Assembly (NCBI RefSeq): GCF_003334305.1
Contig: NZ_QOWS01000090.1
Reading direction: 5' to 3' (one strand)
DNA: 200 bases
DNA from: Escherichia coli
GTDB lineage: Bacteria; Pseudomonadota; Gammaproteobacteria; Enterobacterales; Enterobacteriaceae
How positions within the stretch are numbered: position 1 is the first letter of the stretch; every line of letters begins with the position of its first letter. The translations under genes and the position numbers were made by a program. Shown piece by piece: positions 1 to 200 of the stretch. The notes beneath the pieces were generated by a model that did no database searches, was not told the DNA's origin, and saw only the letters and a list, made by a program, of their open reading frames with translations.

Positions 1-68
1 GTGTATTTCCCGTTAGCCAGGTCATACGCGGCCTTAACGGCTTTTGGCGTTGCCGCCTGTGACTCGGA
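1..68. repeat. Copy A of a perfect direct repeat (68 bp visible, cut by the window start); part of a 132-bp in-frame tandem unit
   Basis: Seen in sequence: base-by-base comparison shows + 1-68 is identical to + 133-200 (68/68). The offset is 132 bp = 44 codons, so the repeat preserves the minus-strand reading frame. Identity reaches the window edge, so the true extent is unknown. Confidence 0.95.
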
Positions 69-200
69 AGTGCTGTTAGTCGCACTGCTGAGCTGAACTA
101 TCCCTTTCTGTGCTGTCGTTGCATCCTGTGCGGTGTATTTCCCGTTAGCCAGGTCATACGCGGCCTTAACGGCTTTTGGCGTTGCCGCCTGTGACTCGGA
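1..200 (-). CDS. stf: Internal fragment (partial at both ends) of a phage side tail fibre protein gene, lambdoid Stf-like, made of tandem 44-aa tail-fibre repeat units
   Basis: Seen in sequence: minus-strand frame with codons at + 198-200, 195-197 ... 3-5 is open for all 66 codons. The other two minus-strand frames have stops (TAG = revcomp of + 98-100; TAA = revcomp of + 166-168). All three plus-strand frames have stops (TGA 94-96; TAG 14-16, 77-79, 146-148; TGA 60-62, 192-194). The translation contains GIVQLSSATNSTS (+ 66-104) and ATPKAVKAAYD (+ 21-53 and 153-185). Established knowledge, from memory: these resemble the conserved phage tail fibre repeat of lambda Stf and E. coli prophage Stf proteins (Pfam Phage_fiber_2, accession not verified here). 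Composition is rich in Ala/Thr/Ser/Gln/Lys, typical of a fibrous shaft. The symbol is given at family level only; the specific paralogue (for example stfR, stfE, stfQ or lambda stf) cannot be assigned from 200 bp. No in-frame ATG or stop is present, so gene boundaries are outside the window. Confidence 0.8.
133..200. repeat. Copy B of a perfect direct repeat (68 bp visible, cut by the window end); part of a 132-bp in-frame tandem unit
   Basis: Seen in sequence: identical to + 1-68. It encodes the same peptide, SESQAATPKAVKAAYDLANGKYT, as copy A on the minus strand. Identity reaches the window end, so the repeat may continue beyond position 200. Confidence 0.95.

Follow-up and report, generated by a model that had tools for sequence, protein, structure and literature searches.

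The 200-nt stretch of Escherichia coli DNA analysed here (the window) is very probably part of the shaft-encoding region of a lambda-type side tail fibre gene (stf), carried by a lambdoid prophage of the Rac/Qin/mEp460 kind in which host range varies by homologous exchange and not by site-specific inversion, and in which the recombinase, where present, lacks a substrate in cis. The locus is of a well-known kind, an intact counterpart of the right arm of the Rac and Qin prophages of strain K-12, and the biology that it represents is already known. The evidence comprises the reading frame and internal repeat of the window, the gene order and domain content of matching loci, and a search for the components of an invertible segment.

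The window and its place in the side tail fibre gene

The 66 codons of the window in minus-strand frame 1 contain no stop and translate as SESQAATPKAVKAAYDLANGKYTAQDATTAQKGIVQLSSATNSTSESQAATPKAVKAAYDLANGKY. The other two minus-strand frames contain stop codons, as do the plus-strand frames; plus frame 1 has a single stop, at positions 94-96, and several lie in the other two plus frames. Positions 1-68 are an exact direct copy of positions 133-200 at a spacing of 132 nt (44 codons), which is a repeat far beyond chance. The encoded peptide, containing …GIVQLSSATNSTSESQAATPKAVKAAYDLANGKY…, corresponds to the Pfam 'phage tail fibre repeat' (PF03406, Phage_fiber_2), which occurs here in units of 44 aa. 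Read in the direction of the gene, the window contains (i) the upstream copy of the 68-nt repeat core (positions 133-200, minus strand), encoding the second half of fibre repeat 1 (codons 479-501), (ii) the rest of the 132-nt (44-codon) unit (positions 69-132, minus strand), encoding TAQDATTAQKGIVQLSSATNST, that is, the linker and the first half of repeat 2, and (iii) the downstream copy of the core (positions 1-68, minus strand), encoding SESQAATPKAVKAAYDLANGKY, the second half of repeat 2 (codons 523-545). All three assignments are based on the translation and the exact repeat, and that of the central part also on Pfam.

A plus-strand open reading frame at positions 1-96 and long antisense frames in the surrounding gene were considered as possible genes and dismissed as artefacts that arise from the composition of the Ala/Ser-rich coding strand. 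The antisense frames, of 334 and 120 aa, lie opposite Ala/Ser-rich and repeat-coding parts of stf (L001 14064-15068 and 15105-15467, locus minus strand). Within the window, the plus-strand stretches 1-96 and 133-200, where frame 1 has its single stop, were judged in the same way.

The entire window (positions 1-200, minus strand) is identical to positions 15001-15200 of the locus of E. coli IAI1 (L001), which served as the exemplar; a window position equals 15201 minus the L001 coordinate. This segment is internal to a CDS of 986 codons (13567-16527) that follows J and lom, and 986 aa is the typical length of Stf at the matching loci. The window covers codons 479-545 of this protein, starting in the second half of repeat 1 and reaching the end of repeat 2. 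In IAI1, repeat 3 starts 13 nt to the left of window position 1, the collar domain lies ∼646 nt to the left, and the stf stop codon ends at 1,327 nt, all on the minus strand. They are followed by tfa (minus strand, 1,327 to 1,902 nt to the left) and pin (plus strand, i.e. the strand of the window, ∼2,000 to 2,590 nt to the left). The initial annotation, made from the 200 nt alone, had described the gene as running right to left and leaving the window at position 1, with no downstream partner visible inside it. Both statements agree with the position of the stop codon and with the content of the window, which holds only repeat-coding stf sequence.

The domain architecture of the full-length protein is that of a side tail fibre. 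The attachment domain phage_tail_N (PF08400) occupies aa 1-134 over its full model length (E 1.3e-71) and is joined to a long, Ala/Ser-rich shaft, in which Pfam recognizes three Phage_fiber_2 repeats (aa 462-502, 506-546 and 550-590; each E ∼1e-20). A Collar domain (aa 761-808; E 1.5e-11) and weak HxH 'Phage_fiber' repeats (aa 824-956) were found by Pfam in the distal part. NCBIfam returned no family for Stf or Tfa, and for the recombinase encoded further downstream it gave only matches below cutoff.

At 99% identity or more, the window matches 257 E. coli records. The 40 matches listed are all at 100%, and every one of these falls in a gene annotated as 'prophage tail fiber N-terminal domain-containing protein'. 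Fourteen exact-match loci, a small and non-random sample of the 257 records, were analyzed at the level of gene order. In all of them, as well as in the phage mEp460_ev081, stf is preceded by J and lom and followed by tfa, the arrangement found in lambda. The tail-module context proposed initially is thereby supported, and neither of the findings that had been named as counting against it was made: the frame does not end without a tfa-like gene or tail genes around it, and the repeat does not belong to a non-phage protein.

The same repeat motif occurs in other fibres, which raises the alternative that the window comes from a different fibre class, such as that of a P2/Mu/P1-type myovirus or a phage-plasmid, for which one would expect to see a genuine G/C/P-type invertible segment on the downstream side. 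The motif is present in gpH of P2 at 83.5% DNA identity (window 8-197 versus NC_001895.1 13264-13459, gene H) and, at ∼90% identity, in records of phage-plasmid size. We nevertheless consider this origin extremely unlikely, since all sampled 100% matches sit in lambdoid J-lom-stf-tfa modules and phage and plasmid records do not exceed 95% identity to the window, with the single exception of an exact match at the end of an unannotated 11-kb record. The closest deposited phage, mEp460_ev081, is 95% identical to the window repeat and is itself lambdoid.

The exceptional record, CP088558.1, belongs to a plasmid collection; it contains five matching places, and the 100% match (11014-11213) lies at its very end. 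This record may represent a fragment of a prophage or an artefact of assembly. The likeness between the window repeat and P2 gene H is an instance of fibre segments common to unrelated phage types.

Two further observations concern the prophages that carry the matching loci. Nearly identical tail arms, including pin-ydfK-ynfT, are found at two chromosomal sites, namely the Qin site in IAI1 (L001), where ydfJ is interrupted, and the DLP12 site beside ompT/envY/nfrA in SE11 (L002). Decay is visible in some carriers; in IAI1 the gene for minor tail protein L is frameshifted (L001 7257-7956).

The fibre tip, tfa and the cargo beyond

The last ∼240 aa of Stf align with the receptor-binding tip of T4 gp37 (PDB 2XGF; E 9.5e-86). 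The alignment covers chain residues 15-242, up to the last residue, and the shared C-terminus reads …NIAFNYIVRLA. The initial annotation had placed a receptor-binding tip to the left of the window and had proposed a comparison of the C-terminal domain with known receptor-binding domains; the match to 2XGF answers both points. The sole strongly divergent stretch is Stf aa 878-922, aligned with chain residues 148-177, which we take to be the small gp37 head domain at the very tip (about residues 932-961). Compared with T4 gp37 and its gp38 chaperone, Stf has kept the Collar, the HxH needle repeats and the C-terminus, whereas the head segment has been replaced and the rest of the fibre differs, T4 being a myovirus with long fibres and the fibre studied here a siphovirus side fibre. 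Over more than 90% of their length, the distal 397 aa of Stf show 52-59% identity to distal long-fibre subunits of T-even phages. With mEp460-type lambdoid phages, the identity over the last 240 aa is 95%. The Stf and Tfa proteins of lambda (Ur-lambda) share with the present ones the gene position after J and lom, the N-terminal attachment domain, the gp37-like tip and the Pfam family of Tfa. Over the last ∼230 aa, the lambda-type tip of Lambda imm21 shows 71% identity to the present one, and the tip head differs.

The tfa gene encodes 191 aa, of which residues 72-191 form a Caudo_TAP domain (PF02413; E 3.9e-44), and its start overlaps the stf stop by one base (TAATG). The C-terminal 66 aa of Tfa also match Mu U (PDB 5YVQ; E 1.4e-9). 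A gene of this family lies directly downstream of stf in each of the 14 sampled loci, as had been anticipated for a lambdoid fibre.

Ur-lambda Stf resembles the gp37 tip, binds OmpC, which is the receptor for both Ur-lambda and T4, and makes adsorption 10-30 times faster (PMC12617516). By analogy with these two phages (PMC12617516), the protein encoded here would form four trimeric side fibres anchored near the tail tip by their N-terminal domains, and its gp37-like head would bind a surface receptor reversibly, leading to faster adsorption. Tfa is predicted to be a chaperone required for folding of the fibre tip, on the model of lambda Tfa, T4 gp38 and Mu U.

The genes found beyond tfa vary. 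A 196-aa serine recombinase gene, located on the opposite strand 97 bp past tfa and followed by ydfK and ynfT, is present in nine of the 14 loci; one of the nine is frameshifted (strain 00-3076; L017 5500-6089). Three loci carry instead a GIY-YIG gene with genes for a cytosine (Dcm-type) methyltransferase and a type II restriction endonuclease, one carries Mn catalase and ferritin-like genes, and one has no annotated gene after tfa. In the full set of complete E. coli genomes, the stretch from the window to the cargo is covered to 80% or more by 581 records for the pin arrangement, 313 for catalase and 66 for GIY-YIG. DNA homology between the cargo arrangements stops within the last ∼5 codons of tfa (L001 17080-17200 versus L005 7090-7180 and L007 7100-7240). 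This breakpoint indicates that the tail module ends in the last tfa codons and that the variable cargo begins beyond them. The C-terminus of Tfa was observed to differ slightly according to the cargo set.

A recombinase gene is thus probably, but by no means certainly, present at the window's own locus. It is quite conceivable, if not the favoured reading, that the window comes from a locus with unrelated cargo after tfa (GIY-YIG with restriction-modification genes, catalase/ferritin-like genes, or nothing annotated) and without a recombinase, in which case the prediction of an invertase gene fails there. Five of the 14 exact-match loci lack pin, and 313 plus 66 records without pin stand beside the 581 that have it. 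The pin arrangement is, however, the majority in both the sample, which is small and non-random, and the population.

The order stf-tfa-recombinase-ydfK is also found in the free phage mEp460_ev081 and in the Rac and Qin remnants of K-12. The right arms of the latter (lomR-stfR-tfaR-pinR-ynaE-ynaM and stfQ-tfaQ-pinQ-ydfK-ynfT) share gene order and orientations with the IAI1 locus, in which the tail module is complete, with the genes from capsid to J present. K-12 StfR is 96% identical to the present Stf over the first 494 aa and 79% over the last 234 aa, but it has one fibre repeat compared to three, and the middle region and the tip-head patch differ. The functional lambdoid phage mEp460_ev081 has the order J-lom-stf-tfa-serine recombinase (minus strand)-ydfK-like gene. 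Its recombinase is identical at 195 of 196 residues and its tip at 95% over 240 aa, whereas its Stf is longer (1,023 aa), has a different repeat region and contains no exact match to the window. In lambda, tfa is followed by ea47, and no recombinase gene is known at that place, which is consistent with PMC3945230.

Test for an invertible segment

Classic inversion systems combine a pair of inverted ∼26-bp crossover sites, of which one lies in the fibre gene, with alternative fibre ends and opposed tfa genes, two of each. The segments of the Din family (G of Mu with Gin, P of e14 with PinE, and also C of P1 with Cin) resemble the present locus in that a small serine recombinase gene lies beside tail fibre and tfa genes, and in their host-range function. 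They differ from it in their crossover sites, alternative Sv/U cassettes and inverted repeats, all of which are absent here.

The search for crossover sites was performed with a PWM derived from six Hin/Gin/Pin sites (half-sites of gix, pix and hix), in which the genuine sites of the e14 and Mu controls scored 18-32 bits. In the stf-tfa-pin region, the best score was 5.5 bits, compared to a mean maximum of 7.1 bits in shuffled sequences (5 kb). Whole loci of 6.8-30 kb gave best scores of 6.7-12.4 bits (shuffled mean maximum 10.5 bits; 30 kb). In the entire 45.9-kb genome of mEp460_ev081 the best score was 12.4 bits, a value reached by 35% of the shuffles, for which the mean maximum was 11.5 bits (46 kb). 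A search for the crossover core AAACCNNGGTTT, exact or with one mismatch, yielded two chance matches, both outside the cassette.

Inverted repeats and rearranged copies were sought independently of the PWM. The repeat search recovered the e14 pix pair and the Mu gix pair used as positive controls. Neither this search nor self-blastn revealed inverted repeats above chance flanking the cassette, and opposite-strand self-comparison of the 6.5 kb from the start of stf, in four arrangement types, gave nothing better than E 0.32. No second tfa, inverted tfa or alternative fibre C-terminus was found in any of the 14 loci, nor was an opposite-strand arrangement of the segment, and the 581 pin-bearing records are collinear over the stretch from the window to pin. 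Annotations reading 'tail fiber assembly protein (x2)', examined as candidate alternative cassettes, were traced either to an IS600 insertion that divides tfa in two or, further downstream, to the tfaX remnant of DLP12.

The only notable inverted repeat in the mEp460_ev081 genome (L022) is a perfect 19-nt pair (29406-29424 and 29535-29553, ∼110 nt apart; E 0.027) near a dicB-like gene, and is unrelated to the fibre cassette.

With no crossover sites, a single tfa and a single fibre end, the locus lacks what defines an invertible segment of the Din type, although a recombinase gene is often present. The possible invertible segment suggested in the initial annotation was therefore not found, and the host-range cassette, where anything unusual at the locus had been expected to lie, contained nothing unusual. 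The suggestion that a recombinase and crossover sites be looked for was right in one half, as the recombinase gene is present in nine of the 14 loci, and the sites are absent.

It could still be argued that the 3' end of stf and tfa together form a working invertible segment (on/off or switching), on which the adjacent Pin acts through non-canonical crossover sites. The serine recombinase gene lies only 97 bp past tfa in those nine loci, and its product has an intact catalytic-serine motif and HTH. It is 36-38% identical to Gin and PinE, so that its sites could differ from theirs, and a cognate site very different from the model could escape the PWM alone. Such a site is argued against by the lack of inverted repeats and by the report that PinQ acts at the canonical e14 pix sites and leaves adjacent DNA unchanged (PMC12529663). 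The recombinase gene is, moreover, oriented opposite to that in Mu and e14. Taken with the absence of any Din-type site above chance, the best inverted repeat of E 0.32, the single tfa and single fibre C-terminus, and the collinear records, these points make inversion at non-canonical sites very unlikely, and we retain the reading in which the recombinase has no substrate in cis.

The recombinase and the sources of host-range variation

The recombinase consists of Resolvase and HTH_7 domains (196 aa) and is 98% identical to PinQ and 99% to PinR of K-12, far closer than to PinE of e14 or Gin of Mu, for which the identity given above was the full extent. For PinQ, the 99%-identical PinR and PinE alike, inversion of the 1,797-bp e14 P segment through the pix repeats has been reported (Kirigo et al., NAR 2025; PMC12529663), and K-12 PinQ is explicitly reported not to invert the DNA adjoining it (PMC12529663). 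The absence of a cis site in intact prophages and in a functional phage fits this report and extends it. The best-supported role for the present enzyme, by analogy with K-12 PinQ and PinR acting on e14 P, would be to act in trans, on invertible segments in the fibre genes of the host's other prophages; the analogy draws on the K-12 work of one research group (PMC12529663). It should be noted that a near-full-length e14 P segment was found in only 284 of 5,426 genomes, from which we infer that in most hosts the recombinase has other substrates, or none.

A broader proposal is that the recombinase is not a decayed relic but is retained because it flips invertible fibre segments in the host's other prophages (e14-, P2-, Mu- or P1-like); host range or superinfection defence would then be under cross-prophage control throughout natural E. 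coli. We regard this as possible, though on balance doubtful. If it were true, the new part would be its generality and its use by functional phages, as the K-12 case was published in 2025.

Variation in the fibre itself was traced by comparing the sampled Stf proteins. The distal half is identical in 12 of the 14. In the remaining fibres, from SCU-104 (L007) and Santai (L019), replacements are confined to aa ∼850-950, with conserved HxH repeats on both sides. This tip-head patch is 48-62% identical to the IAI1 type, and the proteins are identical elsewhere, which suggests, at the level of sequence, different receptor specificities on an otherwise identical fibre. The same patch pattern was seen in the tip of K-12 StfR, and as judged from these alignments it is the signature of patchwise homologous exchange. 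Experiments by De Paepe et al. (PMC3945230) have shown that lambda recombines homologously with the stf/tfa regions of Rac and Qin. Host range would accordingly be expected to vary through patchwise homologous replacement of the head segment (approximately Stf aa 850-950) and of whole cassettes.

The number of fibre repeats also varies. The AR_0081 locus (L020 1565-1995) contains one extra 132-nt unit, giving three exact 68-nt cores and an Stf of 1,030 aa, compared to two cores and 986 aa in the other sampled loci. Gain or loss of such units probably adds to fibre variation, with no involvement of site-specific inversion. Two placements of the 200-nt window are possible in AR_0081.

A 200-nt fragment of a tail fibre repeat thus correctly predicts its neighbours, a gp37-like tip and tfa, and the analogy to the inversion switches of Mu, P1 and e14 fails at the stf locus. 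Although the result has little importance beyond quality control, it has modestly useful by-products. The boundary of the tail module can be placed in the last few codons of tfa. Host-range variation in the fibre can be mapped to a head patch of ∼45-100 aa and to the number of 132-nt repeats. Finally, a recombinase of the Rac/Qin/mEp460 type lies beside tfa without an inversion site in cis, even genome-wide in a complete phage, which fits the report of its action in trans.
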